A stretch of 64,000 nt of DNA from Oceanispirochaeta sp. (GCA_963666275.2 CAXXOA010000002.1:2176001-2240000); one strand, 5' to 3'; numbered from the stretch's first letter, positions 14,188 to 35,137 are shown. Notes: generated from the sequence alone by a model not told the origin. Program-made: numbers and translations.

Positions 14188-14239
14188 TTGACAGAGGCCA
14201 TTTATGCTTTTATTATGATGATAGATAATCGATAATCGA
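14188..14239 (+). promoter_or_regulatory. Promoter plus operator copy 1 (GATAATCGATAATCGA)
   Basis: TTGACA(14188)-17-TATTAT(14211); motif at 14224-14239. Confidence 0.75.
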
Positions 14240-14256
14240 AAAAAAATTGAGAGTAG

Positions 14257-15309
14257 ATGATTATGAAAGCAGTTGTTTTATTAGAGCCGAGTCGAATGGA
14301 ATTACAGGAGATCCCAGAGCCTGTCCTGGGATCTGCAGATATAATATGCCGTGTGAAATCCGTTTCAATCTGTGGTACTGATCCTCATATCATCCAGGGG
14401 GAGTTTCCGGGCTTATGGCCTCAATCGTTTCCTTTTGTTCCAGGTCATGAATGGGCAGGAGAAGTGGTTCAAACCGGGCCTTTAGCCGCGTTAAGCGGCT
14501 GGAAGGACGGGGACAGGGTTTGCGGTATAAGTCATGTAGGCTGTGGACTCTGTGATATGTGCCTGGAAGGGCGCTTCAATCTTTGTCTGAATTACGGAAA
14601 GGAAAAAATGGGGCACAGGCAGTACGGACATTACAGCACTGGAGCCTATTCTGAATATATCATGGCCAGCATGAAATCGGTGGCAGCAATTCCTGACGAT
14701 CTGGATTTTGATGTCGCAGCTTGTCTTGACCCGCTCAGTATCTCACTTCATGTTGTCATGAGGTCGGGAATAAAACCCGGGGATAATGTTCTGATAACAG
14801 GCAGCGGGGCACAGGGGCTCATGAGCATCATTTGTGCCCGGGAACTGGGCGCCGGGCGAATTGTTGTTTCCGGCAGCGGATATCGACTGAAGTTTGCTGA
14901 AAAAATAGGCGCCCTGACACTGAATTACAAAGATAAAAATGTATTGAAAGATGCTTTGGATATGACAGAAGGGCGGGGCTTTCAGCGGGTCATCGAGTGT
15001 TCGGGAAGCACCTCGGGTTTTACCATGGCTGTTGATGCTGTGGCAAAAGGGGGAGTTGTTTCCGTCGTCAGTCTGCCGGATGAACCGGTAGAAATCTCTC
15101 TGAGACGCATTGTCCTGGATGAAATAGATATTAGGGGAAACAGGGCAAACCCGAATACGCTCAAGAAGGCCATCTCCATCGCAGTCAGAAACCGTGAGCT
15201 GCTAAGGAGCATGATTACCCATACCTTTCCTCTTTCTGAGTTTGATACCGCTTTTGAGATATTTACAGGCAGAAAGGATAATTCCGTCAAGGTTATATTA
15301 AAACCGTGA
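14257..15309 (+). CDS. Zn-dependent medium-chain (polyol/threonine-DH-like) dehydrogenase
   Basis: ICGTD, GHEW, CGLCDMC...C structural Zn site, GSGAQG. Confidence 0.92.
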   Translation: MIMKAVVLLEPSRMELQEIPEPVLGSADIICRVKSVSICGTDPHIIQGEFPGLWPQSFPFVPGHEWAGEVVQTGPLAALSGWKDGDRVCGISHVGCGLCDMCLEGRFNLCLNYGKEKMGHRQYGHYSTGAYSEYIMASMKSVAAIPDDLDFDVAACLDPLSISLHVVMRSGIKPGDNVLITGSGAQGLMSIICARELGAGRIVVSGSGYRLKFAEKIGALTLNYKDKNVLKDALDMTEGRGFQRVIECSGSTSGFTMAVDAVAKGGVVSVVSLPDEPVEISLRRIVLDEIDIRGNRANPNTLKKAISIAVRNRELLRSMITHTFPLSEFDTAFEIFTGRKDNSVKVILKP

Positions 15310-15347
15310 GGTTAATAAAAATAGAACTGTAACTAAGGAGATTGTTG

Positions 15348-16247
15348 ATGAAAGTTTTTACAGAAGAGCTTCGGTGTGCTGATGCCGCAATAAGAATTGA
15401 TGTTTATGGAGGGCCAGACAGACAGAAAGTGGCCGAAGATTCCACCTTTCTGAATTACAGACTGGCAGCTGTTACAGCTCATTCTGATACAACTAAAGGG
15501 AAACCGGATATTATCTGGAATTATGAACGGCCCAAAAAAGATATTTCCTTTATTGGAGAGCAGCTTATACTCGATGGTTTCTGGGAAGACGGGGAAATTA
15601 ATAAGGTTCTGGTCTCCATGCTGGCAATGGAGCTGAATAAGGTTGAACTTTATCCGATGCATTCTTCAGCTGTGGTTTACCGGGATAAAGGGATCCTCCT
15701 GCTGGGGGGAGAAAATAATCATGGAAAAAGCATGAGCCAGCTTGAGGGTTGTCGAAGAGGGGCTCTGATGTTTTCTACCGAAACTACTGTTATTAATGAG
15801 GATTGCAAAGCAGTTCTGGGATCTAAGAACATCTATGTCAAGAAACGGGCAAAAGGAACAGAACGGTCGGATCTTCCCGATCAGGATGAAGGTGTTGCTA
15901 AATTTTTCAACAAGGAACCGGAATATAAAACTATAGACGGTCCAATATCCATTGACCTTGTAATTATGCCCAGTATTGACGGACACTTTGATACCAAAGT
16001 TCTGCCTATGAATCAGTTTGAGAGTTCCTATCAGAGTTATCACTCACTTATGAACTTCATGGGAATGAATCAGCTCCTTTCCGGTGATGACGGTCTCTCC
16101 ATGCCTATTATCGATACAGATGCAAGGCGAAAAATTAGAGGCAAAATCTGTGCAAAGTTTGCTTCCGGGCGTCCCTATTATCTTATGAGAGCAAAAACTC
16201 CCCAGATTATATTCGATGAAATCGACAAGATCATTGACGGTATGTAG
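15348..16247 (+). CDS. HPr kinase/PEPCK-like P-loop protein of unknown function
   Basis: MHSSAVVYRDKGILLLGGENNHGKS matches the HxxxV..GILxxGxxxxGKS layout of HPrK-like proteins. Confidence 0.6.
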   Translation: MKVFTEELRCADAAIRIDVYGGPDRQKVAEDSTFLNYRLAAVTAHSDTTKGKPDIIWNYERPKKDISFIGEQLILDGFWEDGEINKVLVSMLAMELNKVELYPMHSSAVVYRDKGILLLGGENNHGKSMSQLEGCRRGALMFSTETTVINEDCKAVLGSKNIYVKKRAKGTERSDLPDQDEGVAKFFNKEPEYKTIDGPISIDLVIMPSIDGHFDTKVLPMNQFESSYQSYHSLMNFMGMNQLLSGDDGLSMPIIDTDARRKIRGKICAKFASGRPYYLMRAKTPQIIFDEIDKIIDGM

Positions 16248-16253
16248 GGCTCT

Positions 16254-16820
16254 ATGAAAATAGCTGTAATATCCGATATACATGAAAACTACCATAACCT
16301 TCTGTTATTCCTTGATAGGATAAAAGGGGAGGGAATAGGACATATCCTGTTTCTGGGCGATTTCATCAATGCGGGAATTGCACGAGTACTGGCCAGGTCC
16401 GGCTACCCTGTCTTCGCCGTTTGGGGTAATAATGACGGAGACAGGACAGCTATTCTGACAGAATGTCTGCATAAAGAGAGCGGGATGAAAATTTCCAAAG
16501 AGTGCTATGGGGATATTACCATTGAGAACAGAAGAATCTTTCTGTCCCATTATCCTGATCTGGTTCAGATAGCCTCGTCATCCGGTTTGTTTGATGCTGT
16601 TTTTTTCGGGCACTCCCATCAGGAATTCCTGGATTCATCCGAAACCTGCGTGGTCATGAATCCAGGAGAAATATCAGCACACAAGTTCGGAAATGCCAGC
16701 TTTGGTATCTATGATACTGCCAGTAACAGTGCGGTTCTGTATCAGCTGGATAACTCAATGACAGTGAAAAATGAAAGGGTTGAAAAAGAGTATTTCCGGC
16801 TGGGATTTAATCAGGAATAA
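16254..16820 (+). CDS. Calcineurin-like metallophosphoesterase (YfcE type)
   Basis: ISDIH, LGD, GNND, GHSH, NPGE. Confidence 0.9.
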   Translation: MKIAVISDIHENYHNLLLFLDRIKGEGIGHILFLGDFINAGIARVLARSGYPVFAVWGNNDGDRTAILTECLHKESGMKISKECYGDITIENRRIFLSHYPDLVQIASSSGLFDAVFFGHSHQEFLDSSETCVVMNPGEISAHKFGNASFGIYDTASNSAVLYQLDNSMTVKNERVEKEYFRLGFNQE

Positions 16821-16985
16821 GTTGCGTAAATACCTTTGCTGACAGTACGGTCACTGGTTTGATGTTCTGAAAAATTTTATGTCCTCTGTTTTCCTTTCCC
16901 TCCGGTAGAGAAAGGTCAGAACTGTTCCGGGTTTCATTTTACTGTCTGAATAGCATTCATTTGATTGGGTTCAGGAGGCTTTAAT

Positions 16986-17957
16986 GTGAGGTATATAAAG
17001 TGGATCAGAGATCTGGGTAGAGATGAAACTTTCATAACAGGGGACAAAGCAGCCAGCCTGGGAGTGCTTATTCAGAATGGTTTTAATGTTCCCGGAGGGT
17101 TCTGTATAACCGGTCCGGCATTTGAATATCTGATGAATGAACAGGAACTTATGCCTGAGATTTGCCGCATTATGAAAACGATAGATTTCAAGTGCTATGA
17201 TGATATTGAGGAGAAATCATCAGCCATAAGAAATCTGATCAATTCTGCGGAAATCCCTGAAGATTTGATGGATGAGATCCTAGAGTCTCTCAGGGAGCTA
17301 TCAGATGCGGCAGACTCTGCCTCCTATCTTGCCGTTCGATCTTCAGTCTTTTTTGAAGGCTGCAGCAGGGCGGGTTTTCCCGGAATGATGGATACCTATC
17401 ATTATATCCGAGGACAGGAAAAGATCTTACCGTGCATCAGGCATTGCTGGGCATCTGTTTATACGGCCCGGTCCCTCTTATGGCGGCATCAGCAGGGAAT
17501 TCTGAATAACCATTTTGTAATAGCACCGCTTGTTCAGAATATGATTCACTCTGAAGTATCTGGAATACTTTTAACAGTGAATGCAGTGACCAGCAATAAA
17601 AACGAGATAATAGTTGAAGCCAACTGGGGCCTTGGGGACTCACTTGTTTCGGGGGCGGCAATTGTAGACAATTACATTCTTGGCAGAGATCCACTTGATA
17701 TTAAACAGAAAACGATCATGAAAAAAAATATATATATCACTTTTGACAGAGAGGAGAAACAGGGAAAAAAACAGTACCAGGTTCCATCAGAAATATCGAC
17801 TGTCTGTACTTTGACAGATGAACAGCTTCTTGAGCTGGCTGATGCGGGGATCAGAATAGAGAAGGTCTTTCAGTCCCCACAGAATATTGAATGGGCCTAT
17901 GTGAAGGGAGAACTCTTTCTGCTTCAGGCAGGTAAGATCAAAGCATTGATCTTTTGA
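16986..17957 (+). CDS. Stand-alone PEP synthase/PPDK-type ATP-grasp (nucleotide-binding) domain
   Basis: GDKAASL, VPGGFCIT, AVRSS, CWASVY, VQNMI, EANWGLG, QNIEWA; GTG start 16986 after AGGAGG; no His domain. Confidence 0.9.
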   Translation: MRYIKWIRDLGRDETFITGDKAASLGVLIQNGFNVPGGFCITGPAFEYLMNEQELMPEICRIMKTIDFKCYDDIEEKSSAIRNLINSAEIPEDLMDEILESLRELSDAADSASYLAVRSSVFFEGCSRAGFPGMMDTYHYIRGQEKILPCIRHCWASVYTARSLLWRHQQGILNNHFVIAPLVQNMIHSEVSGILLTVNAVTSNKNEIIVEANWGLGDSLVSGAAIVDNYILGRDPLDIKQKTIMKKNIYITFDREEKQGKKQYQVPSEISTVCTLTDEQLLELADAGIRIEKVFQSPQNIEWAYVKGELFLLQAGKIKALIF

Positions 17958-18105: not shown

Positions 18106-18156
18106 TTGACATAATAGAAAAGCAATATAACAATAATAGAAAATCGATAATCGATA
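18106..18156 (+). promoter_or_regulatory. Promoter region plus operator copy 2 (GAAAATCGATAATCGA)
   Basis: TTGACA at 18106; motif at 18139-18154 just before the RBS. Confidence 0.7.
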
Positions 18157-18171
18157 CTAAAGGGGGGTTTA

Positions 18172-19866
18172 ATGGATACTTCTAAAGTATTAGCTCAGTA
18201 TCTGGGGGATTCAGCGTTTCCTGTTGAATGGAAGAGTGAAGAAGAGAAGAAGTTATTCTGGTTCTTTGACGATAACCATGTTCCTTTTCCTGTTTCTCCT
18301 ATGTTTTTCAGCCTTGACGGGTGGTGGGGGCCAACTTGTGAATATCTTTTCAAAAGATTTGATGTAGGCTCTGGTGTTAAATGGCACGGGAAAAAAATTA
18401 ACGGTTACGTTTATACAGCCATTGAACCCCGGGCAACGTCTCAGGATGCAGACGAGACTCAGAAATACAACAATATGGTTATGCCTGCCTATGCAACCAA
18501 TTTTCTTGACTGGTGGGATAAAAGGTATCTTCCGGAAGTTCTTAAAAACTTTGAATACATAGATAACTTCGATCATGAAAATGCGACGATTCCCGAACTG
18601 ATGATCTATCTGGAAGAGATGGTAGATATTCAGGAGAGGAACTTCAGACTTCACTGGATTCTGAACTGGGCTCAGTTTCAGGCCTCCATGGGATTCGTCG
18701 GTGCTGTGGGTCAGTATATTGGAGAAGTGGATCAGGACTTTCTGGGCCAGGTTAATGTTTCCAGAGCTGACAAAAACTGGGAAAGCCTCAAAGCTCTGTG
18801 GACACTGAAAGAAGAAATCAAAGCCAGTGCGGAATTGAAATCAATCTTTACCGCACAGACTGATCCTGAAGGTATTGAAAAGGCACTTAATGGCAGTCCT
18901 TCCGGCAAAGCCTTCATGGGCAAGGTCCGGAATTATGCCAGTGAGTTCGGCTATAAGGCTGTGTATACTCATGAATATATCTATCCGCTGTATATAGAAG
19001 ATCAGAAACCTATACTTGATCAGTTAAAAAGTTATCTTGAATCTGATTTTGATTATAACAGCGTCTATGACAAATGCATCAAAGATCAGGATGAAGCGAT
19101 TGCTTATCTGAGAGATAAAATCAAAGACAAAGATCCTGAAACAAAGAAGAAATTTGAAGAGGCTCTGGATCTTAATCTGAAAATGCTTCCTCTGACTCCG
19201 GATCACCATTTCTATTTTGACCAGGGTACTTATGCCAGAATGAGAATGGTCCTTATCAGAGTAGCCAGTAGACTGGTTAAAGAGGGACTGCTGGATGATC
19301 AGGAAGATATCATGCTTCTGGAATATGAACAGCTGAGGCGCTATGTGGCCGATCCCGAAAACTACAATGGACGTCAATTGATTGAGGCTGCCAGGGCTGA
19401 AATGGAAAAGGCTAAAAAAATAACACCCCGTGACTGGGTGGGAACAGCGACGCAATGGAATATGTATGAAGAGCCTTACCATACACTGTGGGGATATCCT
19501 GAAAAATTTGAAAGAGAATCCAGTGAAAAGTGTGAGGGAACTATTCAGGGGCTTCCTGCCAGCCCGGGTGTTGTTGAAGGAACGGCTAAGGTTGTTAAAA
19601 GCCCGGCAGAATTCGAACAGGTCAAGCAGGGGGATATTATTGTCTGTATCATGACAAACCCCGCCTGGGTAGTTGTATTCAGTAAAATTGCCGGTATTGT
19701 CACAGATTCCGGCGGTGTCCTTTCTCATTCGGCGGTCGTTGCCAGAGAATTCGGGATTCCCGCTGTAGTAGGAACCAGTTCGGCAACCAAAGAGATTCAT
19801 ACAGGAGATAAAATCAGGGTCGATGGAAAAACCGGGACTGTTACAATCCTGGAATGCACTGACTGA
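18172..19866 (+). CDS. PEP-utilizing enzyme: helical acceptor-binding domain plus C-terminal phospho-His swivel domain (RPH / phenylphosphate synthase A architecture)
   Basis: GLPASPGVVEG, TNPAW, GGVLSHSAVVAREFGIPAVVG; TPDHHFY in the helical domain; no ATP-grasp. Confidence 0.88.
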   Translation: MDTSKVLAQYLGDSAFPVEWKSEEEKKLFWFFDDNHVPFPVSPMFFSLDGWWGPTCEYLFKRFDVGSGVKWHGKKINGYVYTAIEPRATSQDADETQKYNNMVMPAYATNFLDWWDKRYLPEVLKNFEYIDNFDHENATIPELMIYLEEMVDIQERNFRLHWILNWAQFQASMGFVGAVGQYIGEVDQDFLGQVNVSRADKNWESLKALWTLKEEIKASAELKSIFTAQTDPEGIEKALNGSPSGKAFMGKVRNYASEFGYKAVYTHEYIYPLYIEDQKPILDQLKSYLESDFDYNSVYDKCIKDQDEAIAYLRDKIKDKDPETKKKFEEALDLNLKMLPLTPDHHFYFDQGTYARMRMVLIRVASRLVKEGLLDDQEDIMLLEYEQLRRYVADPENYNGRQLIEAARAEMEKAKKITPRDWVGTATQWNMYEEPYHTLWGYPEKFERESSEKCEGTIQGLPASPGVVEGTAKVVKSPAEFEQVKQGDIIVCIMTNPAWVVVFSKIAGIVTDSGGVLSHSAVVAREFGIPAVVGTSSATKEIHTGDKIRVDGKTGTVTILECTD

Positions 19867-19975
19867 TATTGAAAATCTGCCTGATATGGCGGTGTCTGTA
19901 AGGGCACTGCCTTTTTGCAGCATAAAATTCATAGAATCATAAAATAATTGACTTTAACAGTGAGGATATAAAGCA

Positions 19976-21007
19976 ATGAATGAGTATCTGAAATGGATGG
20001 CTGGTAAAACCACATCTGCCTGGTGGCATGATTCGGCAGATTTGAATGAAGTTGAAAAAGCAATGGAATCCGGTGCTGTGGGAGTTACTACGAATCCAGT
20101 TCTTGTAAAACAAGCTTTATTCTCAAGCCCTGAATTCTGGAATTCCTATTTAACCGATTTCCCTGAAAATCTGAAAGCTGATGCCAAAGCAGAAGAAATA
20201 ATCAGAAGGATCACAGTGGAAGTGGCGGCAAAACTGTTACCTATCTATGAAAAAACAGGGGGAGAACAGGGCTACGTCTGTGCTCAGGTCAATCCCGGAA
20301 AAACAACAGATAGAGAGGGCATGATGGAAATGGCGGAAAGACTTCATGCCTGGGCCCCCAATATTGCAGTGAAAATCCCCGGCACAGCTGTAGGGCTGGA
20401 TGTTCTGGAGGATTGTGCAGCCCGGGGGATGACGATGGTTTCGACAGTCAGCTTCACTCTGCCTCAGGTACTTGCGGCGGCTGAAAGGTATGAAAAGGGC
20501 CGTGCAAGATGCATCGCTGCAGGAAAGAAGCCAGCGAAATGTTTTGCCGTGGTCATGGTAGGCCGCATCGATGATTTCATCAGGGATGTGGTTCGGGACA
20601 ATCAGTATGAAGATATAAAAGAGGAAGATATTCTGATGTGCGGAACCGGGATTATGAAGAGGGCTTTGGAAATCTTTGAACAGAAAGGTTACAACGCCAT
20701 TCTTATGCCTGCAGGTATGAGAGGTGCCTATCATGCCCAGGACCTGGCCGGCGCCTCTTTGACAATGTCAATTCATCCGAAAATACAGGCTTTACTTGAA
20801 AAAAGTTCTTCCCCCTTCAAAGAGAGGCATGCTGAAAAGCTTGAGAAAGAGACTATAAAAAGGCTCTCCCGGGTGGAAGCTTTCAGAAAAGCCTATGAGC
20901 CGGATGTTATGCCTCCTTCAGAATTTATTACCTACGGGGTTGTGCAGAAAACCCTGGCGCAATTCTCAGAAAGCTGGAGTCAATTGGAAGGGTATACGCT
21001 TCCTTAG
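19976..21007 (+). CDS. Transaldolase family protein (atypical active site)
   Basis: WHDSA, GVTTNP, Schiff-base Lys in IAVKIP, VGRIDD. Confidence 0.88.
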   Translation: MNEYLKWMAGKTTSAWWHDSADLNEVEKAMESGAVGVTTNPVLVKQALFSSPEFWNSYLTDFPENLKADAKAEEIIRRITVEVAAKLLPIYEKTGGEQGYVCAQVNPGKTTDREGMMEMAERLHAWAPNIAVKIPGTAVGLDVLEDCAARGMTMVSTVSFTLPQVLAAAERYEKGRARCIAAGKKPAKCFAVVMVGRIDDFIRDVVRDNQYEDIKEEDILMCGTGIMKRALEIFEQKGYNAILMPAGMRGAYHAQDLAGASLTMSIHPKIQALLEKSSSPFKERHAEKLEKETIKRLSRVEAFRKAYEPDVMPPSEFITYGVVQKTLAQFSESWSQLEGYTLP

Positions 21008-21027
21008 GGTTGTGCAGGAGGAATGTC

Positions 21028-21867
21028 ATGGAACAGAGGTTTGAGAATCAGGGAAAGAAAATTCTGTCAGTGGAAAATTTTCAGAAAGATCCTTCGTCCA
21101 CGGATTTTTTTTCCATTGAAGGTCTCTGGAACAAAAAGAATGATATGAAACTCAGTTACCATGATTTTCATCAGATTATATTTGTGGAAAAAGGTGTCTT
21201 TATTCTGTATGACGGAAAGTATCAGCAGCCCTTATATAAAGGAGCTGCTGCCTTTATTCCTGTAGGATATCCCCACAGGATCTACAATCTTCAGAATAGT
21301 ATCTCTGCAAAAACAAGTTCGGTCTATTTTAATTCATCCTTCATGGAAGGAATGGATGATGGCATTCTTATTTTTACAGTTTCCGAGCTAATCGAATCTC
21401 TTATTAAAGAGATTACCGGGCTGGAAGCAAATGAAGCAGATGATATTAATATGAAATGTGTTGCTCTTCTTGTGGAACTTATTAAAAGAGAAACAGAGCA
21501 GCCCAGGCAGAGGATTAAACTGCCTGTTTCCAATGATGAGAGAATACAGAAATCTGTAGATTTCATGCAGCTCAACTTCAGCAGAAAAATAACTCTTACG
21601 GATATTGCCGGAACAGTCTGTCTTTCGACACGTCAGTTTTCCAGGCTTTTTACTGACAAGATGGGAGTCACTCCCTTCGAGTATCTCAGGATGTACCGCA
21701 TTATTTCAGTTCTTCCCACTCTTTCTATGACAAAAGAGAATATCCTGGACAGCATCTATCAGAGCGGATATGAAACTGTGTCATCCTTTTATAAAGATTT
21801 TACCCAGTTTATTGGAATGCCCCCGGGAGCATTCAGAAAAAATCATAACCTGTATAAATCAGCCTAG
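21028..21867 (+). CDS. AraC family regulator with cupin domain
   Basis: HDFHQ cupin; LSTRQFSRLF and GYETVSSFYKDF double HTH. Confidence 0.9.
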   Translation: MEQRFENQGKKILSVENFQKDPSSTDFFSIEGLWNKKNDMKLSYHDFHQIIFVEKGVFILYDGKYQQPLYKGAAAFIPVGYPHRIYNLQNSISAKTSSVYFNSSFMEGMDDGILIFTVSELIESLIKEITGLEANEADDINMKCVALLVELIKRETEQPRQRIKLPVSNDERIQKSVDFMQLNFSRKITLTDIAGTVCLSTRQFSRLFTDKMGVTPFEYLRMYRIISVLPTLSMTKENILDSIYQSGYETVSSFYKDFTQFIGMPPGAFRKNHNLYKSA

Positions 21868-21881: not shown

Positions 21882-22553
21882 TCACTCCAGACTGTCGATC
21901 ATACTTTCTGCGGTGTGTTTGATATGCTTCTCCATAAGAGATGCAGCCTGAGTAGAATCCCCGTTCCTCAGGGCTTCAATGATTGGTTTGTGTCTTTCGG
22001 CGATCTCAAGGGAATCTGATGCTATGTGTGTACCCGTGGCATAGGACAGACTGGCAAATAGCATGTTCCGGGAAATCCTCTGAATCAGTTTATGTCCTGA
22101 AATGCGGATAATCGTTTCGTGGAACAGAATATTGTAGGTTGTCCGTTTGTAGGCATCTCCTTTTTTCGCTGCCTTTATCATTTTATCAAGGATATCTTCC
22201 AGTTCCCTGATTTCCTGTTTTGTTATTTTTGATGCCGCAATGCCTGCTGTCACGGATTCCAGGGTGGCCCTCACGGTAAAAACCTCCCAGAGGTCTTCTT
22301 TGCTCAGAGTTTTTACGGTGATGCCCTTGTAGGGAACAGATTCAAGAAGTCCCATCTCGACAAGTCCCTTGATGGCTTCTCTCACAGGAGCCTGACTGAC
22401 ATTGAATTCTTTAGCTATAGAGCTTTCTATTAGCCTATCACCGGCCTTATATTTCTTTGATAGAAGATCCTGTAATATCTGATCTTTAATTTTTTCACTG
22501 AGAACCTTTTTCTCAAAACCGTCTCTTACACCATTATTGTTGGCCAATGACAT
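21882..22553 (-). CDS. GntR (FCD) family regulator; candidate reader of the 16-bp operator
   Basis: GDRLIESSIAKEFNVSQAPVREA; FHE...H...H FCD metal ligands. Confidence 0.93.
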   Translation of the reverse strand: MSLANNNGVRDGFEKKVLSEKIKDQILQDLLSKKYKAGDRLIESSIAKEFNVSQAPVREAIKGLVEMGLLESVPYKGITVKTLSKEDLWEVFTVRATLESVTAGIAASKITKQEIRELEDILDKMIKAAKKGDAYKRTTYNILFHETIIRISGHKLIQRISRNMLFASLSYATGTHIASDSLEIAERHKPIIEALRNGDSTQAASLMEKHIKHTAESMIDSLE

Positions 22554-22669
22554 TCTCCATAATCAAAATATAAAAACCACAGAGCTTACAAGAAGTTGAA
22601 CAGTAAAAAGTTGTACCTGATTTTTGTCTTTTATATACCAGTTATATAATAAAATCAATCAGTTTTCAA

Positions 22670-22687
22670 TTGATTATCGATAATAAA
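22670..22687. promoter_or_regulatory. Operator copy 3 in the divergent GntR/MBL intergenic region
   Basis: TTGATTATCGATAATAAA, palindromic core ATTATCGATAAT. Confidence 0.7.
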
Positions 22688-28419: not shown

Positions 28420-28557
28420 GATTGTGCCGGGAGGGGCAGTCAGTGCCGGACGTACCCGATATGATCTTAAAATTTTAATGACAGAGGATAAACTCTAATC
28501 TTTAATATACAAATAATATTATATAAGGATTGGATTATGAATTGAGAATAATAATTC

Positions 28558-28611
28558 TTTACGGAGAAGGCTTCTTATTGTAAAATTGTTCTAGATTATC
28601 GAAAATCGATA
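28558..28611 (+). promoter_or_regulatory. Promoter plus operator copy 4 (GATTATCGAAAATCGA)
   Basis: TTTACG(28558)-17-TAAAAT(28581); motif at 28594-28609. Confidence 0.72.
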
Positions 28612-28624
28612 GAGGGGTTTCCAG

Positions 28625-30958
28625 ATGGGAAATTTGAAAGTAGTAGGCAAATCAGTCACCAGAAAAGATGTGATTGATAAAGTTACCGGGATAACCAAAT
28701 ATACCGGTGATATTAACATGACCAGTCAACTTTACGGTGCATTCTACCGCAGTCCCGTACCTCATGGAAAAATTGTGAATATAGATGTCACCAAAGCAAA
28801 AGAATATCCCGGAGTCCGGGTTGTGATAACCGGGGAAGATGTTCCCTATCTCATTGGCCAGACCATTGTAGACCAGCCAGTCCTTGCTGTCGGCAAGGTC
28901 AGGATGGAAGGTGAGCCTATTGTCGGGATTGCGGCAGATACCATAGAAGCGGCCTACCGGGCCGCTGCTCTTGTGAAAGTGGAAATAGAACCTCTTCCCG
29001 TTATTGATGACGTAATGGAAGCGATGAAACCCGATTCACCCCTTGTTCATGAGAAGCTGGAAGACTATGTCAATCTGACCAAATCCCGCTGTAAAAACGG
29101 TACGAATATTTATGATCACTTCACACTCAGAAAAGGGGATGTGGAGAAGGGTTTTGAAGAAGCCGATGTTATCATTGAAAAGGAATACGACTGCGCCATG
29201 CTCAGTCATGCAACAATAGAGACCCATGCTTCGATTGCCCAGTATGAAAGAAGTGGAAAACTGACAGTCATTAGCGCCGCTCAGTCTCCCTTCAGGATCC
29301 GTGCTGAAATGGCCAGAGCCTTCGGTATGGATGAAAGTAAAATCAGGGTGATATCTCCTCCCATCGGAGGAGGATTCGGCAGTAAAGTGGAAATGCGGTC
29401 CGAACAGCTGGCCATCGCTCTGGCCATGCATTCCAACGGTAAACCCGTAAAGGTTGTTTTTTCCAGAAAAGAGGATCTTCTCGCGGGGGTGGTCAGGGCC
29501 GGTGTAAAATTCAGAATCAAAACAGGTGCAAAAAAAGACGGTACCATCGTAGCAGTCCAGTCTGATAATTACTGGGATACCGGTGCCTATGCAACTTTAG
29601 GTCCGGTTATCTCCCTGAAAGCGAATATTGCCCTGACAGGGCCCTATAGTGTTGATAATATCAAGATGGACGGATACTGTGTGGCAACCAACAAACAGCT
29701 GGGAACAGCCTACCGGGGGTTCGGGGCGGCCGAAGCCGCGTATGTCCATGAGCAGCAGATGGACGCTGTAGCAAAGGCTCTTGGTATGGATCCTCTGGAA
29801 TTGCGGCTTAAAAATGTCATGGTCGACGGCAGCAGGGGACATACAGGTGAAACCATGTTTACTGTGGCCATCAAAGAGTGTCTGGAAGCTTCTGCCGAAA
29901 GTCTGGGATGGAATTCAATGCCTTTGAGCTGGATTACTCCGGAAGGGAAAATCCGGGGAAAAGGGCTGGGGGCTTTTTTGAAATTCACAGGAACTCCCTC
30001 TTTTTCCGGTGCTACCGTGAAATTTTCCCATGACGGCTCTGTCACACTCTCCTATGGAACTACTGCCATGGGCCAGGGGGTTGGAACGATCCTCTCCCAG
30101 ATGGTTGCTGAAGAGCTTGGGATAGACATTAACAAGGTTGAAACAGTTCTGGCTGATACGGATCATGTTCCTCTGGATAAAACCACAACCTCCAGCCGTT
30201 CCACCCATCATATGGGAAATGCCGTAATCAAGGCGTGCGATGATGCGAAAAAGAAGTTGAAGCATCTTGTTTCTCTGGCCTGGAAAGTTCCAGAAGATTA
30301 CATAGAAATTGAAGATGGTGTTATCAGAGAGTCAAATGGGGGACCAGATGCCAGGCAGGTAGCCATTAATGATATAAAATCTACCGGACTTCTTAAAACT
30401 TCTGATCCCATTATCGGAAACGGCAGTTATGAAACTTCAGATCTCTGGGATAAACCGGACCCTGAAACCTATCAGACCAGCCGTTTGACTGCCATGTGGT
30501 TTTTCGGAGCCAATGCGGCAGAAGTTGAAATTGATCCTGATACGGGGAAAATTGAGGTTATTCAGGTTGCTGCCGGTCATGACGTAGGAAAGGCTATTAA
30601 TCCTCTGAACTGCATTCAGCAGATAGAAGGAGGAGTAATGATGGGACTGGGAAATGCCATACTGGAAGAGTATATCCATCGCGATGGAAAGCTAATGAAT
30701 GGAAATATGGTAGACTTTAAAGTTCCCACGACTATGGATATGGTCAAAACTGTCAAATCCATTCTCATAGAAAAAGCCCATCCCGAAGGTCCTTACGGCG
30801 CTAAGGGAATTGGGGAACCCTCCATGTGCGGCGCACCGGCCGCTATCGCTTCCGCCGTAGGAAATGCTCTGGGAATAACAGTACATACGATTCCCATAAA
30901 ACCGGAAACGATTATTGGGGCTGCCAGAAAAATTATGGAGGAAAACGATGCTTCCTGA
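28625..30958 (+). CDS. Xanthine dehydrogenase family molybdopterin subunit (complex 2)
   Basis: AQSPF, GGGFGSK, AYRGFG, MGQG, SSRST, GAKGIGEP. Confidence 0.93.
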   Translation: MGNLKVVGKSVTRKDVIDKVTGITKYTGDINMTSQLYGAFYRSPVPHGKIVNIDVTKAKEYPGVRVVITGEDVPYLIGQTIVDQPVLAVGKVRMEGEPIVGIAADTIEAAYRAAALVKVEIEPLPVIDDVMEAMKPDSPLVHEKLEDYVNLTKSRCKNGTNIYDHFTLRKGDVEKGFEEADVIIEKEYDCAMLSHATIETHASIAQYERSGKLTVISAAQSPFRIRAEMARAFGMDESKIRVISPPIGGGFGSKVEMRSEQLAIALAMHSNGKPVKVVFSRKEDLLAGVVRAGVKFRIKTGAKKDGTIVAVQSDNYWDTGAYATLGPVISLKANIALTGPYSVDNIKMDGYCVATNKQLGTAYRGFGAAEAAYVHEQQMDAVAKALGMDPLELRLKNVMVDGSRGHTGETMFTVAIKECLEASAESLGWNSMPLSWITPEGKIRGKGLGAFLKFTGTPSFSGATVKFSHDGSVTLSYGTTAMGQGVGTILSQMVAEELGIDINKVETVLADTDHVPLDKTTTSSRSTHHMGNAVIKACDDAKKKLKHLVSLAWKVPEDYIEIEDGVIRESNGGPDARQVAINDIKSTGLLKTSDPIIGNGSYETSDLWDKPDPETYQTSRLTAMWFFGANAAEVEIDPDTGKIEVIQVAAGHDVGKAINPLNCIQQIEGGVMMGLGNAILEEYIHRDGKLMNGNMVDFKVPTTMDMVKTVKSILIEKAHPEGPYGAKGIGEPSMCGAPAAIASAVGNALGITVHTIPIKPETIIGAARKIMEENDAS

Positions 30959-31835
30959 ATTTGAGTTCTACCTTCCGGAAACACTGGATGAAGCTTTTAA
31001 TGTTAAAAGACAATACGGACAGGACGCCGAATATGTAGCCGGAGGCACGGATGTATATGCCAAGATGCACACAGAAGGCCATTCCTATCCTCATATTATT
31101 GATTTAAAGAAAATCCCCGAACTGCAGGGAATTGTGGAAATGGAAAACAGGGAAATATCTATGGGATCCATGGTGACACATCATGAGATCTGGGCTTCTC
31201 CTGTTATGAAGAAGAACTACTTCATATTGACCGAAGGGGTTTTTACCATTGGTTCTCACCAGGTGAGAAACCGGGGAACCATTGGTGGAAACATCTGTAC
31301 AGCAGCTCCTTCTGCGGATGGAATAGGTCCTTTGCTGGTATTGAATGCCAGGGCTGTTGTTAAGGGCAGTTCCGGGGAGAGAGTGATTCCTCTGGAGAAA
31401 TTCTTTACAGGGCCTAAAAAAACCGTTCTTGAGGGAGATGAAGTCCTGGCCAGGATCATGATTCCTCCTGTTTCCGAAAGGAGTGGGGGGGCCTACTTCA
31501 AGTATGGAAGACGAAATGCCATGGAAATTGCTCTTCAGGCTATATCTGTGTTTCTGCAGGTGGAAGAGGACGGTAAAACCTGTTCTGATGTCAGAATCGC
31601 CCTGGGAACTTCTGCTCCCACGCCCATCAGGGCCTATGGTACAGAAGAGTATCTGAAAGGAAAGGACCTGACCAATGATACGCTTATTGCCGAAACAGGC
31701 AGAGTTATCCTGAATGAAGCCAGGCCCAGGAGTTCCTGGAGGTCTTCCGCTGAGTTCAGGAAAGATCTACTTGTGAAACTGGTTCCCAGAACCATACGCA
31801 AAGCTTATTCCCGGATAGATCAAGGAGAGGTGTGA
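30948..31835 (+). CDS. Xanthine dehydrogenase family FAD subunit (complex 2)
   Basis: AGGTD, QVRNRGTIGGNICTAAPSAD; ATG 30948 after GGAGG. Confidence 0.92.
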   Translation: MLPEFEFYLPETLDEAFNVKRQYGQDAEYVAGGTDVYAKMHTEGHSYPHIIDLKKIPELQGIVEMENREISMGSMVTHHEIWASPVMKKNYFILTEGVFTIGSHQVRNRGTIGGNICTAAPSADGIGPLLVLNARAVVKGSSGERVIPLEKFFTGPKKTVLEGDEVLARIMIPPVSERSGGAYFKYGRRNAMEIALQAISVFLQVEEDGKTCSDVRIALGTSAPTPIRAYGTEEYLKGKDLTNDTLIAETGRVILNEARPRSSWRSSAEFRKDLLVKLVPRTIRKAYSRIDQGEV

Positions 31836-32320
31836 TGAATCGAAAGAAGATAGAAATAACAGTCAACGGACAAAAATACATAAAAGAGGTTTCTGTATCC
31901 CGGACATTACTCGAGTTTATTCGGGAGGATCTGGGACTAACTGGGGCAAAAGAGGGTTGCAACGAGGGGGAATGCGGAGCCTGTACTGTTATTATGAACA
32001 GGAAACCGGTAAACTCCTGCCTGGTTCTGGCCGCTGAAACCGATGGTGCGGAAATTCTGACAGTTGAAGGGCTTGCCATGAATGGTGAACTCCATCCTCT
32101 TCAGCAGGCTTTTATGGATGAGGGGGCTGTCCAGTGCGGATACTGTACTCCCGGTATGCTGATGACTGCCAAAGCGATTCTTGATGAGTTTGATGATCCC
32201 TCGGAAGATGATATCCGAAAGCTGATGGAAGGCAACCTCTGCCGCTGTACCGGGTATAACAGGATTATTTCGACTGTTAAAAAGGTTTCCAATGCCAGGA
32301 AACATGTGACAAATCTTTAA
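31832..32320 (+). CDS. Xanthine dehydrogenase family 2x[2Fe-2S] subunit (complex 2)
   Basis: CNEGECGAC, QCGYCTPG, NLCRCTGY. Confidence 0.95.
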   Translation: MMNRKKIEITVNGQKYIKEVSVSRTLLEFIREDLGLTGAKEGCNEGECGACTVIMNRKPVNSCLVLAAETDGAEILTVEGLAMNGELHPLQQAFMDEGAVQCGYCTPGMLMTAKAILDEFDDPSEDDIRKLMEGNLCRCTGYNRIISTVKKVSNARKHVTNL

Positions 32321-32556: not shown

Positions 32557-32698
32557 AAAATGTCAAAATTGACTGGTGCCCCGGGGATCTTGCCCGATAT
32601 ACAGTCATGTCTATTCCCGGGCGGATAACTTGTTAACTGAGCAATAAGGGATTGCCATGTTCTCCGCCTTTGTCAAAAGTTTATTTGCCTGACAGACC

Positions 32699-35044
32699 CT
32701 AGAAGCTTCCTTCCTCTTCCCGGCTTATCCCCTGCAGGAGCATCAGATCCTCATGGAGTTCCATCCATATATCATGAAATGAACCGCACATAACACCTGT
32801 GAACATTCTGGTTTCACCCGCAATTGCCAGTTTGGCAGCCTCTTTCAGGCGACTTTTGTAGCGGGCCAACCGGGGGAGAACTTCAGATAGCTGTGATAGA
32901 ACAGGCAGAATCCTATCAGCAATTGAGGCAAGAGAATCAAGCTGATACTTATCATATGCCGCATCACTATGATCATTGGGAACACCGTCTTTCAGCTGCC
33001 ATGTACTGCAAAGTTCCTTAAACTCGGAATTCAGCTTGAAGAAAGGCTGGTAAGCGGGAGAAAGGGCATGGGCCAGGTCCGGATCAGCCGTCAGGTCAAG
33101 CCGCCTCTGCTGCTCTTCGCTGCCTTCGGGAGTCAGTGTGTACATGTTTCGGCTTTCCATATGACTGACAAGCCCCTTGCTCAGAAGATTTGCCATGATT
33201 TCTGAGGGAACTTTACCCAGACTTTCCATTAATCCATCTGCTGTAATAAAACCCCTTATCCGAAGGAGGTAGAGGACAAAATCTTCATCCGCATCCAGAA
33301 TTATTTCCTCTTCCTCATATTGATCGGAGAATGGTGTATAGGTCATTTCCGAATCAGAATCTGCCGATGAGCCTTGAGTATTACTGAAGTGGAATGGAAC
33401 ATCTTCTGCAGAAACCTTTCCGGATTCAAGCAAAGTCTGTGCGACTGCCAGGCGGCTGAGAGGCACCCGGAAAGGGGAACAGCTAATAAGTTCCACACCT
33501 GTTCTGACAAAAAAGTCTACAGAGCCTGGATGACCAGCATGTTCTCCGCACACTCCCAGATTGATCGAGGGCTTGGCCTGACGGGCCGCTTTGCAGGCAA
33601 TCTCTACAAGAGAACCCACTCCTTCTGTATCCAGTATGGCAAAGGGATTCTCTTCCAGGATTCCCTTTTCCTGATAAGCCGGCAGCATCCTGGCTTCCAC
33701 GTCATCACGGCTGAATGCAAAAGTCATCTGGGTCAAATCATTTGTTCCGAAAGAAAAAAAGTCTGCATATTTCGCCAGTGCTCCCGCAACAATTGCCGCC
33801 CTGGGTGTTTCGATCATCGCTCCGATAGATATGGATTTTCCCAACAGTTGCGGATGGCCCGACTGATCCAGCGCATCTATTACCCATTGCCTGGCTATGG
33901 ACAGTTCCTTTTCATTTATCACAAGGGGGATCATAATTTCAATCAGCGGATTTTTACCCTTTTGGATGAGGTTCGCCGCTGCTTGAGCCAGTGAGCGTAC
34001 CTGCATTTCGTACAGACCGCTCCGGATCATACCCAGCCTGACTCCCCGTGTGCCGATCATCGGGTTTTTTTCATGTAGCCGTTGGGCTGATGCGAGCTCT
34101 CTGGCTTCTAAAGTACTTAAAGAGCCTGAGGCCTCTTTTGCTGTCAGTTCAATTATATCGGGAAGGAATTCATGGAGCGGAGGATCAAGCAGCCTGACTT
34201 TTACGGGCAGATTGTCCATGGCTTCAAGGATCAGCTCAAAATCAGATATCTGTGCTTTTTCAAGCTGCTCCAGACTCTGCTGGGCTTCTTCATCTGTATC
34301 GCTTAAAATGAAACGACGCATTATTGGCAGACGGTCAGGAGAGAGGAACATGTGTTCGGTTCTGCACAGGCCTATTCCCCTTGCTCCCAGAGAGCGTGCC
34401 ATGGCTGCATCTCCCTGAGTATCTGCATTGGCACGTACTTCTATATGACCGGCTTCCGCTATCTGATCTGCCCAGTTCAGCAGTCGATCAAGCTCCGGAG
34501 GGGCTTCATGTGATGAAACCTCCAGTTCTCCGATATAAACGGCACCTGTTCCTCCGTCAATCGTTAAATGATCTCCTTCCCTGACAAAAATACCATTGAT
34601 TCCAATACCGCCGGGAACAACATCTATTTCCGTGGCACCAACAACGGCAGGTTTTCCCCATCCACGGGCAACAATGGCTGCATGGGAACCAAGTCCTCCC
34701 CTTGCGGTTAATATCCCCTTGGCGGCCTGCATTCCCAGTATATCATCAGGAGTTGTTTCCGTACGAACGAGAATCACAGAACGGCCTTCATCAGATAAAG
34801 CCACAGCCCTAGCGGCATCCAGCACAATTTCTCCTGCTGCTGCGCCGGGTGAGGCAGGCAGACCTGTTGTGGCTGGTTGATAAGTCATATCCGCAGGGTC
34901 TAATCCTGCATGAAAGAACATACTCAGTTCGTTGGGATTAATTGATTTTATCGCCTGCGCGACAGTTTCTGGTGTTTGCTCATTTAGAGCTCTACTAACG
35001 GTTTCCCGGATTGTCTGATCAATAGATACCCTCGTCGTTTCCAT
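32699..35044 (-). CDS. PPDK-derived protein lacking the ATP-grasp: phospho-His domain + PEP/pyruvate barrel + acidic linker + C-terminal wHTH/helical domain
   Basis: GLPASPGAA, GGLGSHAAIVARG, GIGLCRTEHMF, RLLDPPLHEFLP, FGTNDLTQ, GVCGEH; about 200 aa extra C-terminus; ATG 35044 with GAGG RBS. Confidence 0.9.
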   Translation of the reverse strand: METTRVSIDQTIRETVSRALNEQTPETVAQAIKSINPNELSMFFHAGLDPADMTYQPATTGLPASPGAAAGEIVLDAARAVALSDEGRSVILVRTETTPDDILGMQAAKGILTARGGLGSHAAIVARGWGKPAVVGATEIDVVPGGIGINGIFVREGDHLTIDGGTGAVYIGELEVSSHEAPPELDRLLNWADQIAEAGHIEVRANADTQGDAAMARSLGARGIGLCRTEHMFLSPDRLPIMRRFILSDTDEEAQQSLEQLEKAQISDFELILEAMDNLPVKVRLLDPPLHEFLPDIIELTAKEASGSLSTLEARELASAQRLHEKNPMIGTRGVRLGMIRSGLYEMQVRSLAQAAANLIQKGKNPLIEIMIPLVINEKELSIARQWVIDALDQSGHPQLLGKSISIGAMIETPRAAIVAGALAKYADFFSFGTNDLTQMTFAFSRDDVEARMLPAYQEKGILEENPFAILDTEGVGSLVEIACKAARQAKPSINLGVCGEHAGHPGSVDFFVRTGVELISCSPFRVPLSRLAVAQTLLESGKVSAEDVPFHFSNTQGSSADSDSEMTYTPFSDQYEEEEIILDADEDFVLYLLRIRGFITADGLMESLGKVPSEIMANLLSKGLVSHMESRNMYTLTPEGSEEQQRRLDLTADPDLAHALSPAYQPFFKLNSEFKELCSTWQLKDGVPNDHSDAAYDKYQLDSLASIADRILPVLSQLSEVLPRLARYKSRLKEAAKLAIAGETRMFTGVMCGSFHDIWMELHEDLMLLQGISREEEGSF

Positions 35045-35121
35045 TTGTGCCTCTGCTAAAAAAGTCAATATATTTCTATTACTTCGTATGAATGTATTCA
35101 GTACGAATCCAAAAGAGTTAT

Positions 35122-35137
35122 TCGATTATCGATAATC
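35122..35137 (-). promoter_or_regulatory. Operator copy 5 (GATTATCGATAATCGA on minus strand)
   Basis: About 80 bp upstream of the PPDK-like start, in transcription orientation. Confidence 0.75.

Follow-up and report, generated by a model that had tools for sequence, protein, structure and literature searches.

The window analysed here, a stretch of 64,000 nucleotides from Oceanispirochaeta sp. (C2:2176001-2240000 of a 5,267,098-bp (5.27 Mb), three-contig genome, labelled G000), contains a cluster of about 20 genes in five transcription units, the gntR gene itself among them. These units very probably form one strictly local regulon that shares an operator private to the cluster. For the system as a whole, we favour a GntR-repressed regulon serving an anaerobic catabolic pathway that is patchily inherited and widespread across phyla, a reading we hold to be moderately probable. 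Of the interpretation given in an earlier note on this DNA, the shared private operator, the GntR regulator and the co-occurrence of the genes are retained, whereas a phosphate relay through three dikinase modules, the label 'HPrK-like' for a P-loop protein and an aldolase step in the core are given up.

The Operator Is Private to the Cluster

Both strands of the window were searched with GAWWATCGAWAATCGA at up to two mismatches; the 11 overlapping matches fall at five places (14224, 18139, 22672, 28594 and, on the minus strand, 35122-35137), whereas shuffled windows yielded 0.42 on average and never more than 2. These are the five sites reported earlier; four are exact, and the site at 22672 is present with its two mismatches. 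The genome-wide scan that the earlier note had named as a check showed the motif to be private to the cluster. Over the 5.27 Mb, exact and one-mismatch searches with GAWWATCGAWAATCGA returned four matches, every one of them in the cluster, and the palindrome GATTATCGATAATC at up to one mismatch returned eight strand-hits, again all inside it. The true operator is the palindrome ATCGAT-W-ATCGAT, at times extended to arrays of the heptad ATCGATW. Site 3 fits this palindromic register better (ATTGATTATCGAT, 22669-22681, one mismatch).

A position weight matrix (PWM) trained on 105 sites from the loci of other genomes alone (consensus tATTATCGATwATCGATAATa, with weaker flanks) placed the window sites at the eight best positions of the whole genome, with 19.4-24.9 bits. 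The best scores outside the cluster were 17.6 bits (C2:1316946) and 17.3 bits (C3:330679). The first of these (GAATATCTATAATAGATTTTA) lies about 30 nt 5' of an open reading frame (ORF) of 123 aa, which is followed by ORFs of 162 and 340 aa, and might be a weak extra member of the regulon; the other weaker hits outside the cluster fall within ORFs.

The proposal that operators follow -35/-10 pairs agrees with the promoter scan, in which promoter-like pairs precede the operators at three units (P1, P2 and P4), each ending 5-8 nt ahead of its own operator. A position directly after the -10 box fits a repressor.

Distribution of the Operator and of the Cluster

An alignment of the 301-aa family that serves as cluster marker, scanned against the collection, led to 71 related loci, in which a gene was counted as present when it lay within 10 kb of the marker gene; 25 of the loci have full 10-kb flanks. 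They come from Spirochaetota, Oscillospiraceae/Oscillibacter, Lachnospiraceae, Faecalicatena, Chloroflexota, Dehalococcoidia, Gaiellaceae, Planctomycetota and Acidobacteriota. Two cultured strains, Oscillibacter valericigenes An860 and Faecalicatena fissicatena KCTC 15010, are among the carriers. The orthologs of the cluster genes travel together across these loci, a co-occurrence that the earlier note had named as a check. The cluster is no oddity confined to a single genome: homologs of the marker (more than 2000) and of the dikinase subunit (more than 3600) are found in anaerobes of animal guts, termites, peat and sediment, under generic names throughout.

With up to one mismatch allowed, matches to the core ATCGAWAATCGA make up 104 site clusters, spread over 45 of the 71 loci; 20 first-order Markov simulations gave about 11 (maximum 18). 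The sites lie up to 400 nt upstream of genes for PpsA-like proteins (30), cupins (22), GntR (12), PPDK_N proteins (7) and further cluster genes; just two are within genes. The operator-bearing loci belong to Spirochaetota, Bacillota and Chloroflexota, plus one locus of Actinomycetota, and no sites were found in the loci of Planctomycetota, Acidobacteriota and Dehalococcoidia. The Gaiellaceae locus L047 has the operator in a variant form, GATCATCGATGATC. Arrays of at least three ATCGATW heptads are frequent (L019:3986, L054:11764, L036:7002, L060:7383-7397 and others). Since ATCGAT is itself palindromic, such arrays yield overlapping palindromes, a pattern that hints at cooperative binding by several dimers.

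Among close relatives the cluster is sparse. The full-length 564-aa PpsA-like ortholog occurs in only one of 40 relatives, G036 (the nearest carrier, a Spirochaetales genome of another family in the same class), and in none of 10 genomes of the same genus. The 301-aa marker is found in nine of 301 genomes sampled from the class, G000 included, and in none of 20 other genomes of the same family. This sparse occurrence at the level of class, family and genus indicates patchy inheritance. The cluster of G036 is rearranged and lacks Mo enzyme 1, the 3HCDH gene and AraC. Its copies of the motif precede the orthologs of the PpsA-like, metallophosphoesterase and PPDK_N genes and the PPDK-like gene, and also lie in the intergenic region between the genes for GntR and the metallo-beta-lactamase-fold (MBL) hydrolase.

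The GntR Protein as Candidate Repressor

The protein encoded at 21882-22553 belongs to the FadR/FCD subfamily of GntR regulators, with an N-terminal winged helix-turn-helix (wHTH; PF00392, 57 bits) and a C-terminal FCD domain (PF07729, 88.5 bits). Its orthologs occur in 43 of the 71 loci, 32 of which also carry the operator, and 12 operator sites lie directly upstream of GntR orthologs, as autoregulation predicts. The earlier idea of a single GntR regulon gains from this, since the operator and an FCD-type GntR ortholog accompany the orthologous genes elsewhere. Judged from these sequence patterns, the GntR protein is likely to bind the operators. The five sites would then be the operators of the cluster's own FCD-type repressor. 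At three units the operator would span about +1 to +25 of a sigma70-like promoter, so that a bound GntR dimer would block initiation until released by an effector, probably an acidic substrate or intermediate.

The candidate shares with the FadR/FCD repressors the GntR wHTH and FCD domains, a divergent and apparently autoregulated gene, and a palindrome overlapping promoters. It differs from them in the sequence ATCGAT-W-ATCGAT, in the heptad arrays and in an operator that is kept together with its regulator over four phyla.

Some observations pull the other way. Operators known for FadR-class GntR proteins are of the GT..AC type, and ATCGAT-W-ATCGAT is unlike them. The promoter scan found no -35/-10 pair for the 22.67-kb and 35.12-kb units, 11 of the 43 GntR-bearing loci have no sites at the threshold used, and 13 of the 28 loci without GntR within 10 kb still bear sites. 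Loci often end at 10 kb or at a contig edge, so GntR may sit outside them.

These 13 loci also bear on a rather remote alternative, in which the motif is real and its binder is not the cluster GntR: an AraC-family protein, the wHTH tail of the PPDK-like protein or an outside factor could bind it, or it could be a promoter or leader element. Direct-repeat arrays of ATCGATW also suit an AraC-type or multimeric binder, and the best fold matches of the PPDK-like tail, which are weak, are GntR/PadR/MarR regulators. However, the AraC and PPDK-like proteins each occur in one of the 71 loci, against 45 for the motif and 43 for GntR, which makes GntR the best candidate binder. The 12 sites directly before GntR orthologs point the same way, as does the truncation of loci at 10 kb or contig ends, beyond which GntR possibly lies. 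As for a leader element, an Rfam scan of 11-40 kb matched no family, the operator leaders included.

A Predicted Two-Component Dikinase and a Separate Third Module

By motif and domain composition, the products of 16965-17957 and 18172-19866 are predicted to form one two-component small-molecule dikinase of the HpeHI/CreHI/PpsAB kind. The 330-aa protein is a stand-alone ATP-grasp subunit (PF01326, PPDK_N, 255 bits over 26-324), has the phosphoenolpyruvate (PEP) synthase and rifampin phosphotransferase's (RPH's) ATP-grasp domain as its best PDB matches, and occurs in 56 of the 71 loci. The 564-aa protein, found in 53-54 of the loci, carries PF00391 at 485-555; its best PDB match is RPH residues 573-866, aligned to 253-560 (substrate and swivel domains). 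Its motif T511-D-S-G-G-V-L-S-H519 is of the T/SxxGGxxxH type, and H519 is invariant in 14 of 14 orthologs.

The nearest known systems are PpsAB (anaerobic phenol degradation in Thauera), CreHI (4-cresol, Corynebacterium) and HpeHI/AcvAB (acetovanillone and 4-hydroxyacetophenone). All of them are built like the window enzyme: ATP-grasp forms a separate subunit, of about 35-40 kDa in this enzyme type, and the other subunit combines a helical substrate domain with a C-terminal swivel-His domain. According to PMC12167813, CreHI, PpsAB and HpeHI are homologous two-component dikinases with the T/SxxGGxxxH motif; a Ser precedes the catalytic His in PpsA and CreH, as it does in the window protein, which is likened to them by motif and domains, and none of the dikinases has a regulatory Thr. 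All of the members characterised there (PpsAB, CreHI, HpeHI) phosphorylate a phenolic hydroxyl via a phospho-His, with conversion of ATP to AMP. An adenylate kinase gene lies 3' of the PEP carboxykinase (PEPCK)-like marker gene in five loci, which is circumstantial evidence for an AMP-forming step.

Phenylphosphate synthase proper has an additional stimulating subunit, PpsC, and a neighbouring UbiD-type phenylphosphate carboxylase. The Pfam scan of 21 window proteins, to which an NCBIfam scan was added, revealed no CBS or UbiD domain, and identity with that system was rejected on this ground. Control of the dikinase by the P-loop protein in the manner of PDRP was considered and is unlikely, the residue at -2 of the catalytic His being Leu and not the regulatory Thr.

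The three separate dikinase modules of the earlier note do exist; two of them make up a single enzyme of a described type, and the third belongs to a separate family. A phospho-His relay through all three modules finds no support. The gene for the third protein (32699-35068) stands no more than 10 kb from the marker gene in just one of the 71 loci. The protein matches TIGR01828 only at positions 356-863 (swivel-His domain and PEP/pyruvate barrel), with no PPDK_N domain. It was rejected as a pyruvate, phosphate dikinase, as it lacks the three-domain chain and has an extra tail of about 200 aa. This tail is common to at least 208 proteins of Spirochaetota, Desulfosarcina, Acidimicrobiia and Acidobacteria, is strongly conserved and ends in ...FTGVMCGSFHDIWMELHEDL...EEGSF. 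Its model (pLDDT 79.7) shows a wHTH-like unit and a helical bundle; the fold search with it gave no match at E <= 0.001, the weak ones (E 0.05-0.7) being the regulators named above. One relative is annotated as 'EI component/PadR family regulator' in one source. The gene stands under the operator in the window and in G036, outside the cross-phylum core, as a lineage-specific extra. The protein could be a PEP-sensing or PEP-dependent regulator, or a PEP/pyruvate partner of the ATP-grasp protein.

A Small PEPCK-Like Kinase

The 301-aa marker protein (15342-16247) has no Pfam hit above threshold (PEPCK_ATP 14.3 bits vs 26.5). Its family counts more than 2000 homologs with 61-75% identity across phyla, all of them named hypothetical; in precomputed Pfam its relatives fall into PF27840, named ScmC in the atlas. 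The AlphaFold2 model (pLDDT 85.9) has ATP-dependent PEPCK as its top Foldseek match (E 1.8e-8, probability 1.0, about 350 columns), while HPr kinase/phosphorylase (HPrK/P) ranks 37th or lower (E 2.6e-4, TM 0.23). The P-loop core is common to the protein and HPrK/P. The gene list of the earlier note was borne out by Pfam and NCBIfam except at this point: by Foldseek and hhalign, the 'HPrK-like' protein is nearer to ATP-dependent PEPCK. Its identification as HPrK/P itself was rejected, as there was no Hpr_kinase_C or other Pfam hit and HPrK/P falls far behind PEPCK in Foldseek.

In the hhalign alignment, residues 77-139 correspond to residues 202-264 of E. coli Pck. W81/G84/E85/K88, H107/S109 and K129/S130 are paired with W206/G209/E210/K213, H232/S234 and K254/T255 of Pck. 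Y207 of Pck is replaced by Glu and K212 by Asn, while D269 and R65 fall outside the alignment. The importance of the paired residues in Pck is known, in part from the titles of PDB entries of mutants. The protein resembles ATP-PEPCK in its predicted fold over about 350 columns and in the aligned metal and phosphoryl-transfer residues, and differs in the changed Y207 and K212 and in its length (301 residues, against about 540 for a PEPCK with its N-terminal substrate domain). It would work in the way of a PEPCK-type kinase without being counted as a member of that family. The G000 genome has no canonical PEPCK_ATP gene. Complex prediction for the PEPCK-like and PpsA-like proteins scored 0.00, which is neither support nor counter-evidence.

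Retention of the metal and phosphoryl-transfer residues suggests enolate or beta-keto acid chemistry. One improbable but consequential idea is that the protein represents a new class of enol- or aryl-phosphate carboxykinase. The dikinase, or a UPF0261 kinase of the MarK type, would first turn a phenolic or enolic substrate into a phosphate ester; the protein would then couple the carboxylation of this ester, or in reverse the decarboxylation of a beta-keto or ortho-hydroxy acid, to ADP/ATP. If so, anaerobes would possess a (de)carboxylation that needs neither biotin nor UbiD and regains some of the ATP invested. Such an enzyme would stand at the heart of an unrecognised anaerobic pathway for an abundant plant-derived phenolic or hydroaromatic acid, controlled by one GntR through an operator preserved in at least four phyla.

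Conserved Core, Exchanged Parts and Accessory Genes

Within the 25 full-flank loci, the most frequent families are the Mo subunits (20-21), the PpsA-like protein (20), PPDK_N (19) and GntR (16). They are followed by MBL (13), short-chain dehydrogenase/reductase (SDR; 13), alcohol dehydrogenase (ADH; 12), SMP30 lactonase (12), cupin (9), 3HCDH (8), PHP (7), transaldolase (TAL; 6), UPF0261 (6), HD (5) and 'cyclase' (5).

Two functions appear to be exchangeable. A PpsA-like gene is missing within 10 kb in five of the 25 loci; four of these carry UPF0261, and the fifth is that of G036, whose dikinase lies about 13 kb off. UPF0261 occurs in just two of the 20 dikinase-bearing full-flank loci. The UPF0261 protein MarK is described as a phenol kinase that forms ADP; in acetovanillone catabolism it takes the place of HpeHI/AcvAB, which forms AMP (PMC12624787). 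The second exchange concerns the phosphoesterase: non-homologous PHP, HD and YfcE enzymes alternate, and one of them is present in 14 of the 25 loci. The YfcE-type enzyme of the window is replaced in relatives by PHP (21 loci) or HD (8 loci), and in Oscillibacter the PHP gene lies within the gntR operon, with operators on its flanks. In the Hpe pathway, a dedicated phosphatase closes the phospho-stage (PMC9618137).

Both sets of genes for the xanthine-dehydrogenase (XDH)-family Mo enzymes are complete members of the Mo-hydroxylase family (Ald_Xan_dh_C/MoCoBD_1/2, FAD_binding_5/CO_deh_flav_C and Fer2/Fer2_2). The two types exclude each other in 42 of 43 related loci, 28 having Mo enzyme 2 only and 14 Mo enzyme 1 only. 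They stand together in the window (24754-32320) and in one other locus, L017, from an uncultured member of the Spirochaetaceae. Their joint presence in the window may stem from the fusion of two variants of the cluster or from a pair of related substrates, so that the single substrate of the earlier note is one possibility among others. The closest solved relative of both Mo subunits is 4-hydroxybenzoyl-CoA reductase (the alpha subunit, for Mo enzyme 1). A defining feature of that enzyme is a [4Fe-4S]-binding Cys loop in the FAD subunit. Identity with it was rejected at TIGR03194 scores of 523 and 378 bits against a cut-off of 995, and the FAD subunits have two and five scattered Cys with no clustered 4-Cys loop. 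In Faecalicatena fissicatena (L043:17432-20485), a fusion of a MobA-like NTP-transferase with HD, followed by MoCF_biosynth and MoaC, lies 3' of the cluster, which fits a dedicated supply of molybdenum cofactor for the Mo enzyme.

Turning to the remaining enzymes, the MBL protein has LACTB2 and glyoxalase II as PDB neighbours. The 3HCDH-family gene usually lies directly 3' of the MBL gene in related loci, and the substrate of its product may be a free acid. The Zn-dependent ADH (14257-15309) has orthologs in 27-29 of the 71 loci, and every NCBIfam match to it is under cut-off. The TAL-like protein matches PF00923 with 122 bits and its best NCBIfam model with 89 (cut-off 367), and its PDB matches cover residues 24-202 only. 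Since a TAL-like gene is present in only 10-11 of the 71 loci, cleavage by an aldolase, which had been placed among the core steps, becomes accessory. A TAL-like gene followed by an AraC-family gene is seen in the window (19976-21867) and in a termite-gut member of the Oscillospiraceae (L048:2548-4864); with only 26% identity between the two AraC proteins in the HTH region, the shared order is probably convergence rather than orthology.

Relatives add further genes: SMP30/gluconolactonase directly beside the ADH and PEPCK-like genes (25 of 71 loci), a CoA-acylating methylmalonate-semialdehyde dehydrogenase above cut-off (MMSDH; 9 loci), split or fused transketolase (TK; about 10 loci), type II GAPDH (3 loci), DUF1097 membrane proteins, and thiolase with CoA-transferase in L043. 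In locus L020, a single operon reads cupin-SMP30-ADH-TK-TK-PEPCK-like-MMSDH-Mo enzyme-UPF0261. Two further 'conserved' ORF families (305 and 256 aa) were discarded as wrong-strand shadows of GC-rich genes, on the grounds of composition and of a real PHP gene on the opposite strand.

Proposed Pathway and Its Substrate

The exchange of UPF0261 with the dikinase and the alternation of phosphoesterases point to a logic of phosphorylation, transformation and dephosphorylation, to which we would give an even chance. The dikinase would phosphorylate a phenolic or enolic OH of the substrate. The phospho-intermediate would be transformed by the Mo enzyme or enzymes, the NAD dehydrogenases, the MBL hydrolase and the PEPCK-like kinase; the phosphoesterase would then take the phosphate off, and the fragments would pass to central metabolism. 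Relatives would add transketolase, transaldolase, the CoA-acylating (methyl)malonate-semialdehyde dehydrogenase, or thiolase and CoA-transferase. A plant-derived phenolic or hydroaromatic acid is the favoured substrate, tentatively so, as each particular substrate class is rated well short of an even chance.

Several results count against this pathway. No UbiD carboxylase, biotin carboxylase or CoA ligase appeared in the Pfam and NCBIfam scans of the window proteins, and the hhalign match of the PEPCK-like protein to Pck is weak taken alone (probability 21%, E 0.001). Relatives have SMP30, cupin, DUF1097, cyclase and UPF0261 genes for which the G000 genome gave no hit at E 1e-8, so that the window pathway may be partial or different. 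Finally, a sugar-acid route would accommodate the Mo enzyme and the Zn-ADH equally well, along with the SMP30, transketolase and type II GAPDH that relatives carry.

Such a route, with the same regulon serving to oxidise a sugar, sugar acid or lactone in the manner of the archaeal non-phosphorylative Entner-Doudoroff pathway, is rather unlikely. The Zn-ADH would act as an aldose dehydrogenase forming a lactone, SMP30 or the MBL protein would open it as a lactonase, and the Mo enzyme would be an aldehyde oxidoreductase; the dikinase and the PEPCK-like protein would phosphorylate aliphatic hydroxyl or keto-acid intermediates, and transketolase or transaldolase would cut the skeleton. The ADH indeed matches Pfam Glu_dehyd_C and, below cut-off, scyllo-inosose 3-dehydrogenase, and the Mo subunits score, also below cut-off, on glyceraldehyde dehydrogenase models. 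The SMP30 genes beside those for ADH and the PEPCK-like protein, the accessory transketolase, TAL, GAPDH and MMSDH genes, the composition of the L020 operon and a xylose-isomerase-like TIM barrel in G036 would all find a place in it. However, no sugar-acid dehydratase or KDG-type aldolase was seen in the window or the loci examined, and the window cluster is without SMP30, cupin and transketolase. Furthermore, the nearest solved relative of both Mo subunits acts on an aromatic substrate, and phenols are the substrates of the characterised two-component dikinases (PMC12167813) and of the sole characterised UPF0261 kinase (PMC12624787), as far as these sources describe them.

Degradation of a hydroxylated N-heterocycle (a B6 vitamer, a hydroxypyridine or a purine-related base) is a distinctly poorer prospect; the similarities behind it, as behind the sugar-acid route, are at family level and below threshold. 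XDH-family enzymes classically hydroxylate N-heterocycles, and here they would form or oxidise the heteroaromatic ring or an aldehyde of it, with the MBL protein as lactonase or amidase, the 3HCDH-family enzyme acting like FHMPC dehydrogenase, and the dikinase phosphorylating a ring hydroxyl or lactam oxygen so that the ring can be opened. In NCBIfam and PDB alike, the 3HCDH-family protein matches FHMPC dehydrogenase, from the B6 pathway, best (178.9 and 144.9 bits), the SDR found in relatives reaches 206 bits with pyridoxal 4-dehydrogenase, and the MBL protein matches 4-pyridoxolactonase weakly. Yet these scores are far under the curated cut-offs (500, 325 and 325) and tie with those of 3-hydroxybutyryl-CoA dehydrogenase (178.3 and 144.4 bits) and FabG, and the cluster has no conserved amidohydrolase, deaminase or C-N-cleaving enzyme. 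A link to purines is offered by the Lachnospiraceae locus L041 (1515-6834), where the cluster directly follows genes for PALP, M20 peptidase, carbamoyltransferase, carbamate kinase and RidA, which make up the ygeX/ygeY/ygeW/yqeA set for the anaerobic breakdown of purines; this adjacency is limited to one of the 71 loci. The available part of a preprint on 2,8-dioxopurine mentions no dikinase, PEP enzyme, MBL protein or transaldolase.

Relation to Known Pathways

Apart from the enzyme itself, the favoured phenolic or hydroaromatic pathway resembles the known dikinase systems in two respects. The Hpe/Acv clusters include a phosphoesterase gene (HpeD/AcvF; PMC9618137), and HpeHI/AcvAB is swapped for a UPF0261 kinase of the MarK type in some genomes (PMC12624787). 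There are also differences. In the known pathways the partners of the dikinase are a UbiD-type or biotin-dependent carboxylase, a CoA ligase or a P450, none of which is in this cluster; here they are XDH-family Mo enzymes, the small PEPCK-like kinase, an MBL hydrolase and a 3HCDH-family dehydrogenase. The phosphoesterase is of the NagD/HAD family in Hpe/Acv-type systems and of the PHP, HD or YfcE family here, and the bacteria that host the present cluster live as anaerobes, strict or facultative, and belong to Spirochaetota, Bacillota, Chloroflexota and others.

A second comparison is with the anaerobic pathway by which Clostridium scatologenes degrades phloroglucinol (PGR, DPGC, TfD, TAL). 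This pathway shares with the relatives of the window cluster an SDR (26 loci), a 'cyclase' hydrolase (11) and a 3HCDH enzyme (23), and with one relative a thiolase and CoA-transferase beside the regulator. These families are described as serving to reduce the ring, to open it in a retro-Claisen reaction and to oxidise a free 3-hydroxy acid (PMC10470551). In contrast, the cluster has no beta-keto-acid cleavage enzyme, its version in the window has neither SDR nor cyclase, and nothing in the phloroglucinol pathway corresponds to the Mo enzymes, the dikinase or the PEPCK-like protein.

A limited literature search, covering papers without their supplements, found none describing this gene set or operator, in agreement with the earlier statement that no described pathway has these genes; the logic of a kinase followed by a phosphatase is already published. 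Known before were the type of dikinase, the type of GntR and the logic of phosphorylating first and dephosphorylating later. What is new is the partnership of the dikinase with Mo enzymes and a PEPCK-like kinase, the anaerobic distribution across phyla, and the operator. Being conserved with its regulator across phyla, the operator gives a ready handle on the inducer, and hence on the substrate, which operator and regulator together make directly testable.

If the favoured reading is true, the strategy of phosphorylating the phenol first (Pps, Cre, Hpe/Acv, MarK) would extend to fermenting and gut anaerobes, there in company with molybdenum enzymes, and the strongly conserved PEPCK-like family would receive its first function. 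Should the substrate be a common plant phenolic or hydroaromatic compound, the pathway would bear on carbon turnover in anoxic soils and on the gut metabolism of dietary compounds.

Features of the Window

Coordinates of the promoter-like elements, operators and genes of the cluster, counted from the first letter of the window
Feature	Coordinates	Strand	Details
Promoter-like element P1	14188-14216	+	TTGACA-17-TATTAT; 11/12 consensus letters
Operator O1	14224-14244		Core ATCGATAATCGAa at 14228-14240; additional degenerate heptad from 14217; 24.5 bits
Zn-dependent medium-chain alcohol/polyol dehydrogenase	14257-15309	+	Pfam ADH_N, ADH_zinc_N, Glu_dehyd_C
Mini-PEPCK-like P-loop kinase, 301 aa, cluster marker gene	15342-16247	+	Database form begins at 15348
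YfcE-type metallophosphoesterase	16254-16820	+	Pfam Metallophos_2; TIGR00040 above cut-off
Predicted ATP-grasp component of two-component small-molecule dikinase (PpsB/HpeI/CreI-like), 330 aa	16965-17957	+	Pfam PPDK_N
Promoter-like element P2	18106-18134	+	10/12 consensus letters
Operator O2	18139-18159		Core ATCGATAATCGAT at 18143-18155; 24.9 bits, best in the genome
Predicted substrate-binding and swivel-His dikinase component (PpsA/HpeH/CreH-like), 564 aa	18172-19866	+	Pfam PEP-utilizers 485-555
Terminator-like hairpin between dikinase and transaldolase-like genes	19888-19911	+	10 pairs, 6 GC
Divergent transaldolase/FSA-family protein, accessory	19976-21007	+	Pfam TAL_FSA
AraC-family regulator with cupin sensor domain, window-specific	21010-21867	+	Ortholog in 1/71 loci
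GntR-family regulator with FCD effector domain, proposed regulon repressor	21882-22553	-	Pfam GntR and FCD
Operator O3, divergent GntR/MBL intergenic region	22665-22685		Core ATTGATTATCGAT at 22669-22681; 20.3 bits
Metallo-beta-lactamase-fold (MBL) hydrolase	22798-23688	+	Pfam Lactamase_B; orthologs in 35-36/71 loci
3-Hydroxyacyl-CoA-dehydrogenase-family NAD enzyme	23708-24655	+	Pfam 3HCDH_N/3HCDH; 23/71 loci
Mo enzyme 1, xanthine-dehydrogenase family	24754-28419	+	FAD 24754-25719, 2Fe-2S 25712-26197, Mo 26194-28419
Promoter-like element P4	28558-28586	+	9/12 consensus letters
Operator O4	28594-28614		Core ATCGAAAATCGAT at 28598-28610; 20.8 bits
Mo enzyme 2, xanthine-dehydrogenase family	28625-32320	+	Mo 28625-30958, FAD 30915-31835, 2Fe-2S 31832-32320
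PPDK/EI-like protein without ATP-grasp domain, 789 aa	32699-35068	-	PEP-utilizers and PEP-utilizers_C; database form with ATG at 35044
Operator O5, upstream of the minus-strand PPDK-like gene	35117-35137		Plus-strand core TTCGATTATCGAT at 35121-35133; 23.8 bits

Directly 5' of the regulon (11878-13947) lie the genes for a TauE/SafE-type exporter, on the minus strand, and for a URO-D/MtaA-like methyltransferase-family protein; they have no operator and do not recur in related loci. On the 3' side (36432-39118), and also without an operator, there are genes for a xylose/monosaccharide-type ABC ATPase, which scores above the xylG cut-off, and a permease; no substrate-binding gene of at least 90 aa is listed in the adjoining 35.6-36.4 kb. 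ABC transporters of the LIV type are linked to the operator in loci L052 and L054.

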